Virus record (IMG/VR): IMGVR_UViG_3300020044_010635
Location: 1-27,793 of that record
Origin: a virus
Taxonomy: Duplodnaviria > Caudoviricetes
Strand: one strand, 5' to 3'
Length of the DNA stretch: 27,793 nucleotides
How positions within the stretch are numbered: the stretch's first letter is position 1; each line of letters begins with the position of its first letter. The position numbers and the translations under genes were made by a program. Shown piece by piece: positions 3,501-12,554 of the stretch. The notes beneath the pieces were generated by a model. It had not been told where the DNA came from. It made no database searches and saw only the letters and a program-made list of their open reading frames with translations.

Positions 3501-3992
3501 ATGATTGAAGTGAAGTGTCAATTTAAAGAAATGGTCGATCCGACTTCTCTTGTCCCGAATCCTAAGAACCCAAACAAGCATAGCGACAAACAAATAGACC
3601 TTTTAAAAAGGCTTATAGAACATCAAGGTTGGCGTCATCCTATTATCGTTAGCAATAGATCAGGATTCATCTGCGCAGGGCATGGCAGACTGCAGGCCGC
3701 TCTAAAAATGGGCGCTGAACAAGTGCCAGTAGATTATCAAGACTTTGAAAATGAAGCCGAAGAATATCAATTCATGGTCTCTGACAACACAATCCAAGAA
3801 TTGGCAGAACTCGACCTTGCAATGGTCAGTCAAGACGTTTTGGACTTCGGTCCTGATTTTGATCTTGAAATGCTGGCTTTGCCTGATTTTAAAATAGATT
3901 TGAATGGAAAAGACATTGAAATAAAAGAAAAAGAATTAGACGAAAACATAATGACAGATAAGGAATGCCCTAGCTGTGGATATAAATGGTGA
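3501..3992 (+). CDS. ParB/Srx N-terminal domain protein with C-terminal Zn ribbon
   Basis: LVPNPKNPNKH, GWRHPIIV, AGHGRLQAA, SDN motifs; ends CPSCGYKW; no HTH region. Confidence 0.9.
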   Translation: MIEVKCQFKEMVDPTSLVPNPKNPNKHSDKQIDLLKRLIEHQGWRHPIIVSNRSGFICAGHGRLQAALKMGAEQVPVDYQDFENEAEEYQFMVSDNTIQELAELDLAMVSQDVLDFGPDFDLEMLALPDFKIDLNGKDIEIKEKELDENIMTDKECPSCGYKW

Positions 3993-4980
3993 GCCGACAG
4001 TAATTTCGACTTTCTGTGGCACTGGCGGAAGTTCATTAGGTTACAAGTGGGCTGGATTTCACGAGCTTTTAGCAGTCGATTTTGATGATCATGCAGTCGA
4101 GTGTTTCAAGGCAAACTTCCCAGAGGTTCCTGTTTGGCATCGATCAGTTACCGAGATTTCTGGAAAAGAAATCATGGATTTTTGCAAAATCAAGTGGGGG
4201 GAACTAGACGTTTTTGACGGTTCGCCACCGTGCCAAGGATTTTCAACTGCGGGGAAACGACAAGTCAGCGATCCAAGAAATGATCTTTTTATGCATTATT
4301 GTCGGTTGATACATGAGCTAGGTCCTAAAGTGTTCGTAATGGAAAATGTAACTGGCATGGCTAAGGGTACTTTCAAAGGAAAGTTTATTGAGATAATGCA
4401 GACACTTAAAGGAATGAATTATGAGGTCAAATGCAAGCAAATGAACTCTATGTATTATGGAGTTCCGCAATCGAGAGAGAGATTGATTTTTATAGGCGTA
4501 CGGAAGGATTTGAAGAAAATTCCAGTTTATCCTAAAGCTTCGAAAGAAATCATTAGCGTGAGGCATGCGCTTAAGAACGTCCAAAACAAGGATTTTTGTG
4601 AAACAGACTACAAAAAACATAAACGGAAACAATTTGTTCTGTATGACTTGATTCGAAAAATAAAGCCAGGCGAAAACGCAAGTAAATATATCCATGGTGG
4701 TTTTGGTATTATAAGGCTAGACTGGAATAAGCCAAGCCCAACAATTACAAAGACATTCCCTGGTTGTAATGTAAATTTCATTCATCCAATTGAACATAGA
4801 AATATAACTATTCAAGAGGCTTTAGTTTTATCTTCATTTCCTAATGAATGGGTTATGAGTGGGACCTTTCGAGACCAATGGGCACGAATAGGAAACGCAG
4901 TAATGCCTAAATTTATGCAAGCGATCGCCGAAACTATAAAAACAGAAATCCTATGTATTGAAGGCGAAATAAAACAATGA
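3976..4980 (+). CDS. DNA (cytosine-5) methyltransferase
   Basis: Motif I FCGTGG, IV GSPPCQGFS, VI ENV, VIII QSRERL, X IGNAV. Confidence 0.95.
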   Translation: MDINGEPTVISTFCGTGGSSLGYKWAGFHELLAVDFDDHAVECFKANFPEVPVWHRSVTEISGKEIMDFCKIKWGELDVFDGSPPCQGFSTAGKRQVSDPRNDLFMHYCRLIHELGPKVFVMENVTGMAKGTFKGKFIEIMQTLKGMNYEVKCKQMNSMYYGVPQSRERLIFIGVRKDLKKIPVYPKASKEIISVRHALKNVQNKDFCETDYKKHKRKQFVLYDLIRKIKPGENASKYIHGGFGIIRLDWNKPSPTITKTFPGCNVNFIHPIEHRNITIQEALVLSSFPNEWVMSGTFRDQWARIGNAVMPKFMQAIAETIKTEILCIEGEIKQ

Positions 4981-5480: not shown

Positions 5481-5750
5481 ATGTGCAGATTTGAATATGT
5501 GAAATACGATGCGAATGCCAAGAAAGATCAGGAAGAGTTTAAGCTCAATGTGGAATCACTTGAAACTAAAATTGATACTATAGGATACAGGCTTGGACGA
5601 GTAGAACACCGAAAGGGACCTGCACGAGCCAAAGCCTTAGCATTGACGGCACTTGAGGAATGTTACATGTGGATCGGCAAAGCCATTCGTGACGATCAAA
5701 TCGCAAGAAATGGTTCAGCTACTTTGCAAGAAGAACGTGAGGATTGCTAG
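5481..5750 (+). CDS. Acb2/Tad1-like helical-hairpin protein (candidate cyclic-nucleotide sponge)
   Basis: RAKALALTALEECYMWIGKAI matches the R..[SA]LA.T.LEE..MW..[KR] hairpin signature. Confidence 0.65.
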   Translation: MCRFEYVKYDANAKKDQEEFKLNVESLETKIDTIGYRLGRVEHRKGPARAKALALTALEECYMWIGKAIRDDQIARNGSATLQEEREDC

Positions 5751-5753
5751 TGA

Positions 5754-8138
5754 ATGACTCCTGCTGAGAAACTAGAATATTTGCGCATTCTGGAAGAACT
5801 TGAACGCAGAAATAAGTATCGATTGATTGACAGTTATTATCCAGACAAAGGACCTTTAAGGCGAGAGCTATACAAAAAGCATCTTGAGTTTTTCGCAGTT
5901 GGAAATGAATACGATGAAAGATTGATTCTCGCCGCGAACAGGATTGGAAAATGTATTTCAGGAGATACCAAGATAGATTCACCTTTTGGTGAAGCAAAAG
6001 AAGTCCAAAACATTAAAGGCAAACATTGGGTTTGGGCTTGGAATGGTACTGAGAAAATTCCAGTTTTAGCGGATCAACCATTTTCTAAGAACCCTGAAAT
6101 GGTTTATCGGGTTTGGCTTGAAAACGGCCAGTTTGTAGATTGCGCTGCGGAACACCGATTCCTGAGCGAATTTGGTTGGATCTTTTTATCGAGCCTTTTT
6201 TCATCCGTTCCAGCCCTTCCGCAGTCCAATTTGGACGTTTGCCTTTTCGATTCGTTCGATGCTGTTTTGCATTTTTTTGACAAACAGCCAAAATGTTCTT
6301 TCGACCTTGATTCGTCCATTGAGGGCATTTTCCTTTCAGAGAATGTTTTAGGTGCTCACTATTTGAAGAAAACACTTCAAGATTTTCCGGGCGATTGTCG
6401 TCGGGAATATCGTTTATATGATGAACAACTTCAGTCTTATCCAAATATCTCCCAAGCTTTTTTTCCATCACAAGACGATGCTCTGAAACATAGCCAGACG
6501 CTGTTGCATTCGGATGTTGTGGGTTATAGATATAAACATAGCCCTTCACCTTTCGCCTTCCCCCCTTCCAACCAGTGTGAAGGTGCCCGCTTCGTGGACC
6601 ACTTCTCTGCGTCTGCAAATTCAATTTTTTGCAATTTCGACCGACAGTATCTCGTGAGACGCCGAGGATCGATGCCGTTTTCCACTGCGTCAAACATTGA
6701 TCCTCAATCAAATCACGAAGTTTTTTTTCATCAAGATAGATCTTCTTTGGCATTAATTTCTCCCAATGGTAAGAGTAACATGATTGTATGCTACCAGCCA
6801 ATTGGAGTTCAACCAATTTGGGATTTTCATGTTCCAATTTACAATAATTATTGCACTGCCGGGATGGTTCATCACAACACCGAAGCAATCGGCGGCTATG
6901 AGCTAACTTGTCATTTAACTGGAATTTATCCTAAATGGTGGCCAGGACGAAAGTTTAACCGACCGATTGAAGCATGGGCATGTGGCAAAACTGGACAAAC
7001 TGTCAGAGATATCATTCAAAAGAAATTGCTCGGCCCTTCGAATGACATTGGCACTGGTCTTTTGAAGCCAGAATTTATATTAGACACGACTCCAAGACGT
7101 GGAGTGCCAGAATCAATCGACACGGTTAAAGTGAAGCATATTTACGGCGGTATAAGTGAATTAGGTTTTAAGTCTTATGATCAAAAACGACAGTCATTTG
7201 AAGGCACTAAAAAAGATGTTGTCTGGTTGGATGAGGAAAGTCCTCTCGACATTTACACCGAATGTTTACTTCGAACTACTGACACAAGCGGGCTTAATCT
7301 AGGCAATGGAATGATCTTATTTACTTTCACTCCTCTCTTGGGATTGAGTGAAGTTGTCCTGCAGTTTTTGCCAGGCGGTGAGATAAATGAAATCAAAAGC
7401 GGTTCAAAATGCGTGATCATGGCATCATGGGATGATGTCCCGCATTTGACTGAAGAAGTGAAAGCCAAAATGATGGCATCGATCCCTGCATTTCAAAGAG
7501 ATGCAAGATCGAAAGGCATCCCTCAACTTGGATCAGGTGCTATTTATCCAGTACCGGAATCAGATATTGTTGTCCCAGACTTTCCATTGCCTAAACATTG
7601 GCCTCGCGGTTACTCGCTAGACGTTGGTTGGAATAGAACAAGTGCAGGATTTCATGCCTATGACCGAGAAAATGACGTGATTTATCGCTATAGCGAACAT
7701 TATCGAGGGCAAGCCGAGCCATCGCTTCATGCCGAAGCTATTAAGTCTCGAGGTACTTGGTTGAAAGGTGTTTGTGATCCTGCAGCGAGAGGGAGAAGTC
7801 AGGCAGACGGCCAACAATTGCTCCAGACCTATATTGACCTAGGCCTTGATTTAGACGTGGCATTCAATGGAGTTGAGTCAGGTATTTATGAAATGTGGCA
7901 GAGACTTTCAACTGGTAGGTACAAGGTTTTTGCAAGCTGTACAAATTGGATTTCTGAATATCGGATCTATAGACGAGATGAGAAAGGTCGAGTCGTGAAA
8001 GGCAATGATCATGCTCAGGATGACGCACGGTATTATGTGATGAGTGGACTTGATAGGTTAACTCTAGAACCTCAACCAGAAAATCAACAAAGAAAATTTG
8101 TGCAGCACGGGTCCCATTCGGACGGATGGATGACATAG
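5754..8138 (+). CDS. terL: terminase large subunit (P22 gp2-like) containing an intein; 794-aa precursor, about 485 aa after splicing
   Basis: Walker A AANRIGK|T is split by the intein; Walker B VVWLDEE; coupling motif FTFTP; RNase H-like nuclease LDVGWN...NDHAQDDARY. Confidence 0.95.
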   Translation: MTPAEKLEYLRILEELERRNKYRLIDSYYPDKGPLRRELYKKHLEFFAVGNEYDERLILAANRIGKCISGDTKIDSPFGEAKEVQNIKGKHWVWAWNGTEKIPVLADQPFSKNPEMVYRVWLENGQFVDCAAEHRFLSEFGWIFLSSLFSSVPALPQSNLDVCLFDSFDAVLHFFDKQPKCSFDLDSSIEGIFLSENVLGAHYLKKTLQDFPGDCRREYRLYDEQLQSYPNISQAFFPSQDDALKHSQTLLHSDVVGYRYKHSPSPFAFPPSNQCEGARFVDHFSASANSIFCNFDRQYLVRRRGSMPFSTASNIDPQSNHEVFFHQDRSSLALISPNGKSNMIVCYQPIGVQPIWDFHVPIYNNYCTAGMVHHNTEAIGGYELTCHLTGIYPKWWPGRKFNRPIEAWACGKTGQTVRDIIQKKLLGPSNDIGTGLLKPEFILDTTPRRGVPESIDTVKVKHIYGGISELGFKSYDQKRQSFEGTKKDVVWLDEESPLDIYTECLLRTTDTSGLNLGNGMILFTFTPLLGLSEVVLQFLPGGEINEIKSGSKCVIMASWDDVPHLTEEVKAKMMASIPAFQRDARSKGIPQLGSGAIYPVPESDIVVPDFPLPKHWPRGYSLDVGWNRTSAGFHAYDRENDVIYRYSEHYRGQAEPSLHAEAIKSRGTWLKGVCDPAARGRSQADGQQLLQTYIDLGLDLDVAFNGVESGIYEMWQRLSTGRYKVFASCTNWISEYRIYRRDEKGRVVKGNDHAQDDARYYVMSGLDRLTLEPQPENQQRKFVQHGSHSDGWMT
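6085..6753 (-). CDS. HNH homing endonuclease (HTH + HNH_3-type core + basic C-terminal repeats), antisense and nested inside the intein, 222 aa
   Basis: WKGGR...GYVYIY.PQHPNA..SGYVSEHRLVMEKKLGRYL...EVVHHIN....DNRPENL; N-terminal HTH LTQWKTASILGVSRDTVGRNCKK; GGGAG SD 6 nt before ATG 6753. Confidence 0.9.
   Translation of the reverse strand: MPKKIYLDEKKLRDLIEDQCLTQWKTASILGVSRDTVGRNCKKLNLQTQRSGPRSGHLHTGWKGGRRKVKGYVYIYNPQHPNATASGYVSEHRLVMEKKLGRYLDKTEVVHHINDIPDDNRPENLEVFSSNSEHLKHSLKGKCPQWTNQGRKNILAVCQKNAKQHRTNRKGKRPNWTAEGLERMKKGSIKRSNQIRSGIGVPQRNLQTGRFQAKPDKPFQGS
6783..6812 (-). promoter_or_regulatory. candidate antisense promoter for the nested HNH gene
   Basis: Minus strand TTGAAC(6812-6807)-N18-TACAAT(6788-6783), about 30 nt upstream of the HNH ATG. 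Confidence 0.5.
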
Positions 8139-8166
8139 ATAAAACTAAATTAAACATTTATTTAAA

Positions 8167-8192
8167 ATTGATTTTATTAAAATAAAGTCAAT
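8167..8192. repeat. near-perfect palindrome just upstream of the portal start
   Basis: ATTGATTTTATT-AA-AATAAAGTCAAT, 11/12 arm match. Confidence 0.55.
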
Positions 8193-8193
8193 C

Positions 8194-10380
8194 ATGGTCA
8201 TAATGAAAGACCAATCAGAGAAAACAGAAAACCAAAAAGTAGACAAGAAGTCATCAAAAAAACGTGCTGAGGACATTATTGCGACCGCCAAAAAGCGTTT
8301 TTCGATGGCGGAAGCGGCGGAAGCTGATATTAGGCGCGATGCATACAATGATTTGACGTTTCGATCCGGTGAGCAATGGCCTGATGATGTCAGGGCTGAG
8401 AGATCGGCTGACCAAAGACCTTGCTTAACGATCAATCGCATCCCTCAGTTTGTCCGGCAAGTCACTAATGATCAGAGACAAAATCGACCTGCTATAAAAA
8501 TTCATCCAGTTGATGATGAGGCAGATGTCGAAACGGCAAAAATTTACCAAGGTTTGATCAAGCATATTGAAAGCAATTCGAATGCTGATACTGCCTATGA
8601 CACAGCGTTTGAAGGTGCAGCGGTTAAGGGCTTTGGATATTTTTATATAACGACTGATTGGGTTGATCCACACTCGTTTGATCAAGAAATTCTAGTCAAA
8701 CGTATTCGGAATTCATTTACTGTTTACATAGATCCTGCTTCAAAAGAAATTGACGGCTCTGACATGAATTGGGGTTTTATTTTTGAAAACATTTTGAAAG
8801 ATGATTTCAAAGCAGAATATCCCGAGTCAGAGTTATGCAGCTTGGACGGTTGGTCCTCAATTGGCGATGACCAACAAGATTGGATCGATGAAGAAACAAT
8901 CAGAGTCGCTCAATACTGGTATCGCGACTATAAATCTGTCAAAATTGTTTTGCTAAGCAATGGCGTGACAATTGAAAAAGCCGATCTTGACGAATTGTAT
9001 CCCGATGGATTGCCGGACGAATTAAAAATTGTAACTGAGAGAGAATCAAAAGTTCCATACATCAAATGCTGCACAATCAATGGAGTTGAGATTCTTGAGG
9101 AAATTGATTGGCCAGGGAAATATATCCCGATTGTACCCGTTTTCGGTGACGAATTAGACATTGATGGCAAAAGAATCCTTGAGGGCATTGTTCGTCATGC
9201 AAAAGATCCTCAAAGAATGCTCAACTATTGGAAAAGCACGGAGACTGAAACAATAGCATTGGCACCACGAGCGCCTTTCATTGTAGCTGAAGGTCAAATC
9301 CCGAAAGAATATGAATACATTTGGAAAACTGCCAATCGAAAAAATCATGCATATTTGCCCTACAAGCCAACAAGTATTTCAGGCCAGCCAGTAGCACCTC
9401 CTCAAAGGAATTCCTTTGAACCTGCAGTCGGTGCAATAACGAATGCGACAATGCAAGCTGCTGATGATTTGAAATCAACTACTGGCATCTATGACGCTTC
9501 ACTCGGTGGGCGTTCAAACGAAACCTCAGGCATTGCTATTCAAAGACGAAATATGCAATCCCAGACTAGCAATTTTCATTTGATTGATAATTTAAACAGG
9601 TCAATCAAACATGCCGGACGAATTATAGTTGATTTGATTCCACATATTTATGACGCTCCTAGAACTGCTGTTATCATTGGCGAAACTGGAGAAAAAGAAG
9701 TCATTCGAATCAACCAAGAATTCCAAAAGAATGGCAAGACGACTAAATACAGCTTAGGTGTTGGAAAATATGACGTCACGGTTGAGGCCGGACCTTCCTA
9801 TGCGACAAAACGCTTGGAAGCTGCAAGTTCAATGGAGCAATTAACTCGCGCCTATCCTCAAATCATGCAGGTCGCAGGTGATCTCATGGTTAAAAATATG
9901 GATTGGCCTGGAGCTTCAGAAATTGCAGAACGGCTCAAAAAAACATTGCCGCCTAATTTGTTAGACAATGCAGAAAATGGCGAAATAAATCCAGAGCAAA
10001 TCAAAGGTCAAATGGATCAAATGAATCAGACGATCCAACAGTTGACTCAAGCTTTGGAACAAGCCAATGCGGTGATTGATCAAAAGAAAATAGAAATCGA
10101 ATCAGACGAGCGCATTGCATTCGCCAAAATGGAAACTGACTTAAGAAAAGAAATGATGAAACAATCCGACGTCAATGCTTTGAATGAAGTTTATGGTCAG
10201 ATAAATGACATCAAGGCACGCTTGCAATTGCTTGATATTCACAAGCCATTCGACGCCGGAAACCCAATGATGAATCTAGATATGAATGGCTCTGGCTTTC
10301 AACAAGCTGGACTGCCTAATGGATTTAATAACCAATCTACTGGTGGAATTTCACCAGGCCAACCCATGGGAGAATTTTAG
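8194..10380 (+). CDS. portal protein (P22 gp1-like)
   Basis: GEQWP, RPCLTINRI..FVRQVTNDQRQNRP, WPGKYIPIVP, KDPQRMLNYW, ETSGIAIQRR, GKYDVTVEAGPSYATKR; C-terminal coiled coil. Confidence 0.95.
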   Translation: MVIMKDQSEKTENQKVDKKSSKKRAEDIIATAKKRFSMAEAAEADIRRDAYNDLTFRSGEQWPDDVRAERSADQRPCLTINRIPQFVRQVTNDQRQNRPAIKIHPVDDEADVETAKIYQGLIKHIESNSNADTAYDTAFEGAAVKGFGYFYITTDWVDPHSFDQEILVKRIRNSFTVYIDPASKEIDGSDMNWGFIFENILKDDFKAEYPESELCSLDGWSSIGDDQQDWIDEETIRVAQYWYRDYKSVKIVLLSNGVTIEKADLDELYPDGLPDELKIVTERESKVPYIKCCTINGVEILEEIDWPGKYIPIVPVFGDELDIDGKRILEGIVRHAKDPQRMLNYWKSTETETIALAPRAPFIVAEGQIPKEYEYIWKTANRKNHAYLPYKPTSISGQPVAPPQRNSFEPAVGAITNATMQAADDLKSTTGIYDASLGGRSNETSGIAIQRRNMQSQTSNFHLIDNLNRSIKHAGRIIVDLIPHIYDAPRTAVIIGETGEKEVIRINQEFQKNGKTTKYSLGVGKYDVTVEAGPSYATKRLEAASSMEQLTRAYPQIMQVAGDLMVKNMDWPGASEIAERLKKTLPPNLLDNAENGEINPEQIKGQMDQMNQTIQQLTQALEQANAVIDQKKIEIESDERIAFAKMETDLRKEMMKQSDVNALNEVYGQINDIKARLQLLDIHKPFDAGNPMMNLDMNGSGFQQAGLPNGFNNQSTGGISPGQPMGEF

Positions 10381-11309: not shown

Positions 11310-12554
11310 ATGTCAAATTCATTGCTCACAGATGACATCATCACAAAAGAAACCATGATGTCTTTGAAAAATCAGTTAGTATTTACCAAAAGCTGCAACA
11401 TGCAGTACAGCGACAATTTTGCCCAAACAGGTGCAAAAAAAGGTGCCACAATTAACGTGCGAAAACCAACACGCTATGAAGTGACTGAAGGTGCATCACT
11501 TACCATTCAAGATAGCCAAGACCAATCCGAAGCTTTGACACTTGATAAACATTATCATGTCGGCATGGCTTTCTCAGAAAAAGATAGAACCCTTTCAATC
11601 GATAGATTTAGAGAAAGATATATTGAACCTGCTACTATTGCATTGGCCAATAAAATTGATTCTCAGTTTTTTACCGATATGTATTCTCAAGTTTTTAGTG
11701 CAGTTGGTGTCCCAAGTGCTAGTGCATTTCCTTCGACTCTTAAAGGTTTTACAAATGCAAAAGCGGTTTGTGCAAGTCTTGGCGCTCCAAAAGGTATTTA
11801 CAATGCGATTGTAGATCCATTGGTTGAAGCATCTCTAGTCAATGGTCTTAGTGGGTTGTTCCAATCATCCGAAAAGATTGCAAAGCAATATGAGGATGGA
11901 GTGATGGGATTGGCCGCTGGGTGCAAATTCATGATGAGCCAAAACGTGCCAAAGCACACTAGCGGAAACGTCGCTGGGACTGCAGCAATTGACACGACTG
12001 TCAGTGCCAATGGAACTGCGACTCTCCACATCGATGGACTGACTGGTGTTATTGCGACAGTTTACAAAAAAGGTGACGTCATCACTATTGCTACAGTCTA
12101 TGCAGTGAACCCACAAACCAAAGTCAGCACTGGTCAACTCAAGCAATTTGTTGTCACCGCTGATACTGGGACTTCAACTTCCGGTGAGATTGCATCTTTG
12201 CCAATTTCCCCAGCCATTTATTTGTCTGGACCTTTGCAAAACGTGGATTCTGCACCTGCTGACGGTGATGCAGTAACTTTGTTCGGTCACGCAACATCAT
12301 ATGCTGGTGTCGTGGCACCTCAAAACATGGTTTTCCATAAAGATGCTTTCGTTTTTGGATCTGCTGACTTTGAACTTCCGAGTGAAGGAGTTAAAGCAAG
12401 CCGAGCCGTTGACAAAGATGCAGGATTGTCACTCACAATGACTTCTCAATTTGACATTGTGAATTATAGAAATATCACTCGACTGGACTTTTTAGGCGGA
12501 TGGAAATGCGTCTATCCTGAATTGGCTTGTCGTGTTGTCGGTCAACCTGCTTAG
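11310..12554 (+). CDS. major capsid protein (P22 gp5-like)
   Basis: MSNSLLT..IIT, GATINVRKP, LANKID, NMVFHKDAF, RLDFLGG...YPELACR; AGGAG RBS; followed by a terminator. Confidence 0.95.
   Translation: MSNSLLTDDIITKETMMSLKNQLVFTKSCNMQYSDNFAQTGAKKGATINVRKPTRYEVTEGASLTIQDSQDQSEALTLDKHYHVGMAFSEKDRTLSIDRFRERYIEPATIALANKIDSQFFTDMYSQVFSAVGVPSASAFPSTLKGFTNAKAVCASLGAPKGIYNAIVDPLVEASLVNGLSGLFQSSEKIAKQYEDGVMGLAAGCKFMMSQNVPKHTSGNVAGTAAIDTTVSANGTATLHIDGLTGVIATVYKKGDVITIATVYAVNPQTKVSTGQLKQFVVTADTGTSTSGEIASLPISPAIYLSGPLQNVDSAPADGDAVTLFGHATSYAGVVAPQNMVFHKDAFVFGSADFELPSEGVKASRAVDKDAGLSLTMTSQFDIVNYRNITRLDFLGGWKCVYPELACRVVGQPA

Follow-up and report, generated by a model that had tools for sequence, protein, structure and literature searches.

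An antisense HNH endonuclease gene within a phage terminase intein, and its relatives at Walker A motifs

We confirm here that the gene for the large terminase subunit (TerL) of a phage contains an intact intein, and that this intein holds a complete gene for an HNH endonuclease on its antisense strand. The stretch of DNA analysed, hereafter the window, is a phage contig of 27,793 nucleotides (IMG/VR record IMGVR_UViG_3300020044_010635), examined as the whole assembly. The contiguous intein occupies positions 5952-6878 (plus strand) and the endonuclease gene positions 6085-6753 (minus strand). Judged from sequence, the element is very likely a working homing intein, and we consider it probable that the two genes form a two-strand mobile homing unit, in which a cis-splicing intein would be combined with an antisense helix-turn-helix (HTH)-HNH homing endonuclease.

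The intein and the gene on its antisense strand

The TerL precursor is encoded by a single 794-aa open reading frame (ORF) at 5754-8138 (plus strand), in which a Pfam scan matches Terminase_6N (E 2e-9) and Terminase_6C. Downstream of it lie genes for a P22-like portal (8194-10380) and then a coat protein (11310-12554). The precursor consists of a 66-aa N-extein, a 309-aa intein (residues 67-375) and a 419-aa C-extein, with a predicted spliced form of 485 aa. The insertion is exact: 309 codons from Cys1 to His308-Asn309, with Thr at the +1 position, separate ...ANRIGK from TEAIG... and thereby split the Walker A motif between Lys and Thr. Its ends are set by an intein-free allele (L274), which is 92% identical in nucleotides to 5766-5951 and 94% to 6876-9735, and they find a second support in a joint from 5951 to 6888, with 9 letters between, in the public runs X1 and X18.

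The residues of a class 1 intein are all found in the window, namely Cys1, the block B His (His68, 6153-6155), the block F Asp (Asp291, 6822-6824), the terminal His-Asn (within His307-His308-Asn309) and the +1 Thr. The canonical block B motif is TxxH; here it reads AAEH, with Ala in place of the usual Thr, and to this extent the blocks named in an earlier sequence-only note on this DNA (hereafter the original prediction) need qualification. Intein hidden Markov models of Pfam and NCBIfam match under their cut-offs (E 0.004 and 0.026). An AlphaFold model built from a 10-sequence alignment is confident at both ends, where the beta regions reach 10-residue block means of pLDDT (predicted local distance difference test) of 80-92 (N-terminal) and 86-88 (C-terminal), and among the matches listed all 20 of the 20 PDB fold matches at E<=0.001 are Hint or intein structures (best E 1.7e-5). 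The N-terminal splicing region (5952-6227, plus strand, residues 1-92) contains Cys1 and His68, both invariant in 10 homologues, and the C-terminal splicing region (6738-6878, plus strand) contains block F and the terminal His-Asn. Between them, the sense-frame linker (6228-6737, plus strand, residues 93-262) appears to be a stop-free shadow of the antisense HNH gene. It models as unfolded, with pLDDT <50 at residues 93-133 and 141-262, it has no Pfam match to a nuclease domain between blocks B and F, and it is deleted in the homologues P0006 and P0008. Thus the intein carries no endonuclease domain in frame, as a canonical bifunctional intein does, and it differs from the split inteins of fractured genes in that a single 794-aa ORF is retained, with the nuclease overlapping it on the opposite strand.

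The antisense gene runs from an ATG at 6753 to a stop at 6085 and encodes 222 aa, with an N-terminal three-helix HTH-like unit, an HNH_3 core, C-terminal helices and a tail that overlaps intein block B. Its Pfam match to HNH_3 (E 8e-12, 45 bits against a cut-off of 24.8) clearly exceeds the threshold. The core pattern EHR...HH...DN...N...H lies at residues ~88-135, and H92, R93, H111, H112, N120, N124 and H134 are invariant across 27 aligned HNH sequences. The protein has 730 relatives at E<=1e-3, among which HTH matches are found, and HNH_3 is the only nuclease class detected in the window gene and its relatives. The structure model has a mean pLDDT of 78.7. A duplication of ~30 aa in the C-terminal helices (residues ~146-175, a 'PxWTxEG' helix unit) is shared, among the 27 aligned proteins, with P0010 only; a NUMOD3 identity for these helices was not supported by Pfam. 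As the stop-free minus-strand frame spans 6888 to 6085, an upstream TTG start at 6888 was considered and rejected: homologues begin at the Met of 6753 and a Shine-Dalgarno-like sequence is placed there too, and the ATG at 6753 was therefore taken as the start. The gene covers intein codons ~45-268, its last ~45 codons overlapping intein codons ~45-92 with block B included. It is complete, as the original prediction had it, without being confined to the linker. In 76/80 lineages, the HNH stop is likewise found no further than 80 codons into the intein.

Sense and antisense codons are paired first base to first base, which sets the wobble positions of the HNH gene against second positions of the sense frame. 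The L016 clade, which is related to the window, supplied 30 distinct inteins of equal length and 86-100% identity. In these, polymorphic sites at sense positions 1, 2 and 3 amount to 24/83, 14/82 and 76/82 in the N-terminal 247 nt, and to 21/171, 74/171 and 15/171 in the HNH overlap. In this clade, pooled ratios of nonsynonymous to synonymous substitution rates (dN/dS) are 0.11 in the HNH frame, 2.2 in the overlapping part of the sense frame, and 0.065 and 0.077 in the two splicing regions. When the window is compared with 8 relatives, whose HNH proteins are 49-64% identical to its own, HNH third-position identity is 0.32-0.44 and second-position identity 0.66-0.75. The sense frame is nonetheless kept open. 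Synonymous shuffles of the window HNH gene place a mean of 8.2 stops in the TerL frame and 0/200 leave it open, indicating that the open frame is not due to chance; in 80 nested HNH genes, no stops occur in the sense frame against 6.5 expected. Pairs of Phe with Ile, Met, Thr, Asn or Lys are absent from nested HNHs (0/202, against 31/122 in free HNHs), but an open sense frame forbids them in any case, and their absence adds no independent evidence. These patterns support a conserved HNH frame opposite a sense linker that drifts yet stays stop-free, and they show that selection acts on both strands and differs between them. The expectations of the original prediction for each strand were thus borne out: the linker neither contains a nuclease motif nor looks like a conserved folded domain, and the antisense ORF does not gather stops in homologues, a premature HNH stop occurring in only 1/133 distinct long sequences (L198).

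An intein-HNH family in unrelated P-loop ATPases

Relatives were retrieved with two alignments, a single-sequence query with the window intein having found no loci in viral contigs. The intein-alignment search gave 80 of 117 viral loci and 73 metagenome loci, and the HNH-alignment search, which did not require an open opposite strand, gave the best 80 of 535 viral loci and 40 genome loci. All 80 of these best viral HNH matches lie antisense within an intein and in one phase, as do 8/40 genome matches; the remaining 32/40 are more distant and lie outside inteins. Loci with unclear intein ends were dropped (13/154 in the intein set, and 12/88 nested loci in the HNH set), and some N-termini in the intein-anchored set were placed by the nearest Cys as a guess. 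The resulting 217 inteins correspond to 171 distinct sequences and, at 70% identity, to 114 lineages, of which 96 are long (95 with the HNH gene), 16 are mini-inteins and 2 retain the HNH tail only (L126 and L148). In the intein-anchored set alone, the HNH gene is found in 36/37 long lineages. The strict catalytic pattern of the HNH is kept in 82 lineages; 16 long sequences miss it, and on inspection a premature stop was seen in L198 only. On the splicing side, Cys1, the block B His, the block F Asp and a Cys, Ser or Thr at +1 are present in 95/95 long lineages, and the terminal His-Asn in 93/95. No intein retrieved holds an in-frame copy of the window-type HNH. In annotated phages no full-length member was found, 0/50,697 records covering 80% of either protein, and this large family of antisense HNH inteins resides in uncultured phages. 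Annotation overlooks one of the two genes or labels such inteins 'degenerate'.

This one family occupies unrelated P-loop ATPases. Among 35 scanned host proteins, many of which had no host-domain match, matches were found to Terminase_6N, DNA_pol3_delta2 (clamp-loader-like), AAA, SbcC/SMC, TraG-D_C and Helicase_C, together with a Mg_chelatase match whose intein is a mini-intein. The insertion lies before the xGKT of Walker A in 58 lineages, between GK and T in 48 (the window included) and nearby in 8. Within the window clade itself the insertion point has moved by whole codons along Walker A, to GKGE/T or back to /xGKT (L170, L197, L205, L208; L182, L196, L203, L204, L227). Distances between splice domains correlate with those between HNHs (Mantel rho 0.74, a value reached in 0/499 permutations) and the two trees broadly agree, as far as approximate trees from short alignments allow. 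The idea that the shared phase is simply the easiest to keep open was rejected, since stops in free HNH relatives number 4.2 per 100 codons in that phase against 2.9 and 3.9 in the others; the shared phase thus points to descent.

Mini-inteins are scattered in the tree next to full forms, and mini/full pairs occur at the same site (L012/L008, L148/L133, L005/L075), indicating repeated deletion of the nuclease gene. The minis L148 (compared with L133), L012 (compared with L008) and L126 are clean deletions of full alleles, in which the tail of the antisense HNH alone is left in L148 and L126. Only one locus has a stop in the sense linker: L131, in a host that is RecA-like by motif reading, has one TAG (975-977) opposite an intact antisense HNH. 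As there is no in-frame restart codon before block F, L131 is not a working split intein, and read-through, recoding, an error or a dead allele are candidate explanations. Three further loci differ in other ways. L151 (2872-3906) combines a related splicing domain with in-frame NUMOD3 and a TnsA/NERD-like (PD-D/ExK-type) nuclease (weak matches, E ~1e-3) and has no antisense HNH, and the hosts of L049 (2872-6063) and L237 (468-3374) contain an apparent second Hint element or LAGLIDADG-like domain farther downstream.

At the window site, empty and occupied alleles coexist. In 45 distinct related TerL loci, 41 are empty, 1 is occupied and 3 could not be scored (L298, L317, L330), with intein-free alleles at 84-94% identity to the window; such a patchy distribution alongside empty cognate alleles is as found for homing endonucleases. 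The run X1 contains an empty allele at depth 48.5 (upstream extein 84% identical to the window) together with an occupied allele at depth 5.2, the latter 96% identical to the window (41 differences in 1104 nt). In X2, the N-extein (183 nt) of an occupied contig differs at 21 or more positions and its intein (927 nt) at 57 or fewer. The allele patterns of X1 and X2 fit an intein that has passed from one terminase allele to another, diverged one.

Expression signals, proposed mechanism and alternatives

The C-terminal portion of the intein appears to carry the promoter and the ribosome-binding site of the HNH gene. In the window, a Shine-Dalgarno-like GGGAG (6760-6764, minus strand) precedes the HNH ATG by 6 nt; the sense frame reads Ser-Pro there, with the Pro invariant in 10 homologues. 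A sigma70-like candidate promoter, TTGAAC-18-TACAAT (6783-6812, minus strand, 9/12), lies within the C-terminal splicing codons 30 nt before the ATG, and it falls in the -10 cluster of the family, 84-93 nt from the intein end. HNH starts are mostly found 107-149 nt from the 3' end of the intein, and a Shine-Dalgarno sequence with an ATG in the stretch near this end is present in 70/95 long lineages compared with 0/16 minis, some of which may have lost part of that stretch by deletion. An antisense sigma70-like site of at least 10/12 within the last 135 nt of the intein is found in 38/95 long lineages compared with 0/16 minis; at the same threshold, the sense strand gives 3/95 and synonymous shuffles of intein codons give 6.7 expected (maximum 12). 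A terminator-like hairpin ~90 nt past the HNH stop (5978-5993, minus strand) is weak and tentative, 3 such sites being found in the window against 2.3 +/- 1.5 expected. The original prediction viewed the intein as a neutral container. The contiguous intein does hold a separately encoded antisense nuclease, but with the nuclease's likely start signals in its own C-terminal codons it would not be neutral.

We propose that on the sense strand the cis-splicing intein would cut itself, together with a meaningless linker peptide, out of the TerL precursor by the class 1 route, as its fold and residues suggest, and that splicing would restore the Lys-Thr junction of Walker A in the terminase. On the antisense strand, an HTH-HNH homing endonuclease would be made from the promoter and ribosome-binding site in the C-terminal codons, to which the conserved signals point. 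By analogy with HNH homing biology and given the allele patterns, the HNH may nick or cut the intein-free Walker A-coding DNA of a co-infecting or co-resident relative, and repair would then copy the element into the cut allele. As to origin, a mini-intein may have captured a free HNH gene once, long ago, which is the most likely source of the shared strand and phase. Speculatively, the HNH could be timed early relative to the late terminase gene and be used against co-infecting phages. A wider joint reading, which is conceivable but which we would not yet call probable, is that the antisense layout is a stable design: the C-terminal splicing codons would double as a promoter for the host polymerase and a ribosome-binding site, the nuclease would be made at times of its own, tied to DNA replication or co-infection and not to the late terminase gene, and a target in Walker A-coding DNA would have let a single intein-HNH lineage spread into unrelated P-loop ATPases (terminase, clamp loader, RecA-like, AAA, SbcC-like, TraG-like, helicase) and relocate its insertion by whole codons inside the motif.

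Several observations weigh against the homing unit that we favour. The window promoter alone is not above chance, 5 sites being found against 4.1 +/- 2.2 expected. The RNA run X18 contains only the intein-free allele, with no cover of the intein, in contigs that carry no strand information, and it says nothing on expression. The dN/dS values were obtained in a related clade, whose insertion register differs, and are pooled over non-independent pairs. In the same L016 clade, intein identity tracks flank identity (Spearman 0.80), suggesting that much of the spread is vertical or local and arguing against frequent long-range transfer. The HNH-alignment matches are biased towards intact genes, and the lineages share ancestry, so their counts are not independent events. 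Finally, neither fold nor profile searches with the HNH gave a solved structure in PDB at E<=0.001, I-HmuI being reached at E 0.89 by fold and 0.15 by profile.

If the layout were instead a transient intermediate, as in the model of bioRxiv 10.1101/2025.01.02.630785, a free HNH gene would have landed recently in a mini-intein, and the arrangement would in time decay or turn into either a bifunctional intein with the HNH in frame or a split intein. Deletion products do exist, in the form of the 16 mini lineages and the 2 with HNH remnants, several paired with the full form at the same site, and the TAG of L131 and the HNH stop of L198 would also suit such a course. However, 95 lineages have kept one strand and phase down to an intein identity of <30%, splice-domain and HNH distances are correlated, no in-frame counterpart of this HNH turned up in the inteins retrieved, and L131 is not a working split intein. 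We therefore regard this explanation as unlikely. The original prediction also allowed for an intermediate in capture or splitting, which is weakly supported at best, the usual exit being deletion to a mini-intein. The homing unit rather looks like a stable mobile element, not a transient state, that decays to mini-inteins.

A slightly more doubtful explanation is that the HNH has been domesticated for the phage, either as a terminase cofactor in a role like that of HK97 gp74, or as a weapon against co-infecting relatives, whose terminase gene it would cut, with homing being secondary. The HNH does sit in a packaging gene and is itself under purifying selection, empty and occupied alleles co-occur, and there is a published case of an intron endonuclease with a part in the competition of co-infecting phages (PMC11620839). 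Nevertheless, the near-identical phage L274 is without the whole element, the site is empty in 41/45 related TerL loci, members of this HNH family occur in non-terminase hosts and mini-inteins lose the HNH, which together exclude an essential cofactor role; a role in competition would be compatible with homing. It is very improbable that function resides in the sense linker and that the antisense ORF is either a relic without expression or a shadow arisen by chance, because, apart from the weakness of the window promoter match by itself, variation is concentrated at HNH wobble positions, the linker models below pLDDT 50, the catalytic pattern persists in 82 lineages and the Shine-Dalgarno-plus-ATG signal separates long lineages from minis.

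Known systems and neighbouring genes

The original prediction had suggested a third, perhaps undescribed architecture. The antisense-nuclease layout is already known: intact actinobacteriophage inteins that hold a LAGLIDADG or a VSR-like gene in antisense are described in bioRxiv 10.1101/2025.01.02.630785, which credits Gorbalenya 1998 for the antisense LAGLIDADG type (Synechocystis DnaX, Chloroflexus SpoVR). As in these non-canonical inteins, the intein of the window is intact, a complete endonuclease ORF faces it on the other strand, and its sense linker is stop-free and unstructured; as described there, many of the actinobacteriophage inteins also sit in terminase large subunits and show signs of continued spread. 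The window nuclease, in contrast, is an HTH-HNH_3 protein, a class that the text of the preprint lists only in frame, and given HNH_3 in place of LAGLIDADG or VSR-like nucleases we regard the window intein as a variant of the antisense-endonuclease inteins. According to the same text, such layouts are rare and their antisense ORFs are expected to decay fast after homing stops, whereas here 95 lineages share one phase in unrelated P-loop hosts; the word 'promoter' is absent from its main text, whereas here promoter-like signals lie in the intein codons. No antisense HNH intein was found in the literature searched, outside which lay most subscription journals, InBase and preprint supplements.

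Three other systems resemble the window in part. In a cyanobacterial dnaX intein with an out-of-frame LAGLIDADG gene, as described in bioRxiv 10.64898/2026.09.14.751524, splicing and nuclease likewise use separate overlapping frames, the nuclease has its own Shine-Dalgarno sequence, empty, mini and full alleles coexist, omega exceeds 1 for the host frame and stays below 1 for the nuclease frame, and the host is a clamp-loader subunit; unlike the window, it uses a +2 ORF, LAGLIDADG and one cellular host gene, as opposed to an antisense HNH in many phage hosts. The ShiLan element, an out-of-frame HNH insertion in phage methylases (PMC11855218), likewise leaves the host frame open and conceals its HNH gene in a different one, but is without a splicing domain and lies in frame 3 relative to the host gene, with no antisense wording in the text of that paper. 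Among our own distant HNH relatives, L265, L267 and L272 are ShiLan-like in that a long ORF on the same strand, read in another frame and lacking intein motifs, runs across the core. Fractured genes, in which an intein is split and a free-standing endonuclease gene lies between its halves (PMC2677866), share with the window a separate endonuclease gene in an intein locus and an origin in environmental metagenomes; they have three ORFs on one strand, a split intein and a GIY-YIG or Vsr-like nuclease, whereas the window intein is contiguous with an antisense, overlapping gene.

With regard to the nuclease itself, HNH_3 (PF13392) phage homing endonucleases such as I-HmuI are the nearest comparison. 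The window HNH resembles them in an HNH_3 core above cut-off, a conserved catalytic pattern and helical DNA-binding modules. It differs in its N-terminal HTH, the domain order of I-HmuI being another, and its direct similarity to I-HmuI is weak (E 0.15).

Antisense-nuclease inteins have been described as rarities and possible stepping stones, while this family, with 95 lineages in a limited sample, shows that the layout can be the normal, long-lived state of a large clade. We see the value of the finding in the size and uniformity of the family, in the promoter-like and Shine-Dalgarno signals within intein codons and in the movement among Walker A sites. The element also offers a clean natural case of ~670 bases constrained on both strands. 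Given the many empty, full and mini alleles of the family, gain and loss of the nuclease, expression of the nested gene against a late phage gene and switching of host genes via the ATP-binding motif are all directly testable.

Two observations concern the genes upstream of terL. A ParB_N-like gene and then a C5 cytosine methyltransferase gene (3501-4980, plus strand) lie just upstream of the packaging genes. Between an upstream HTH gene and terL, an 89-aa gene (5481-5750, plus strand) matches the Acb2/Tad1 hairpin domain (PF24729, E 7e-8), a family of sponges for bacterial immune signals. The close relatives X1, X2 and X18 either have other sequence in this slot or lack it, and it therefore looks like a variable cassette.

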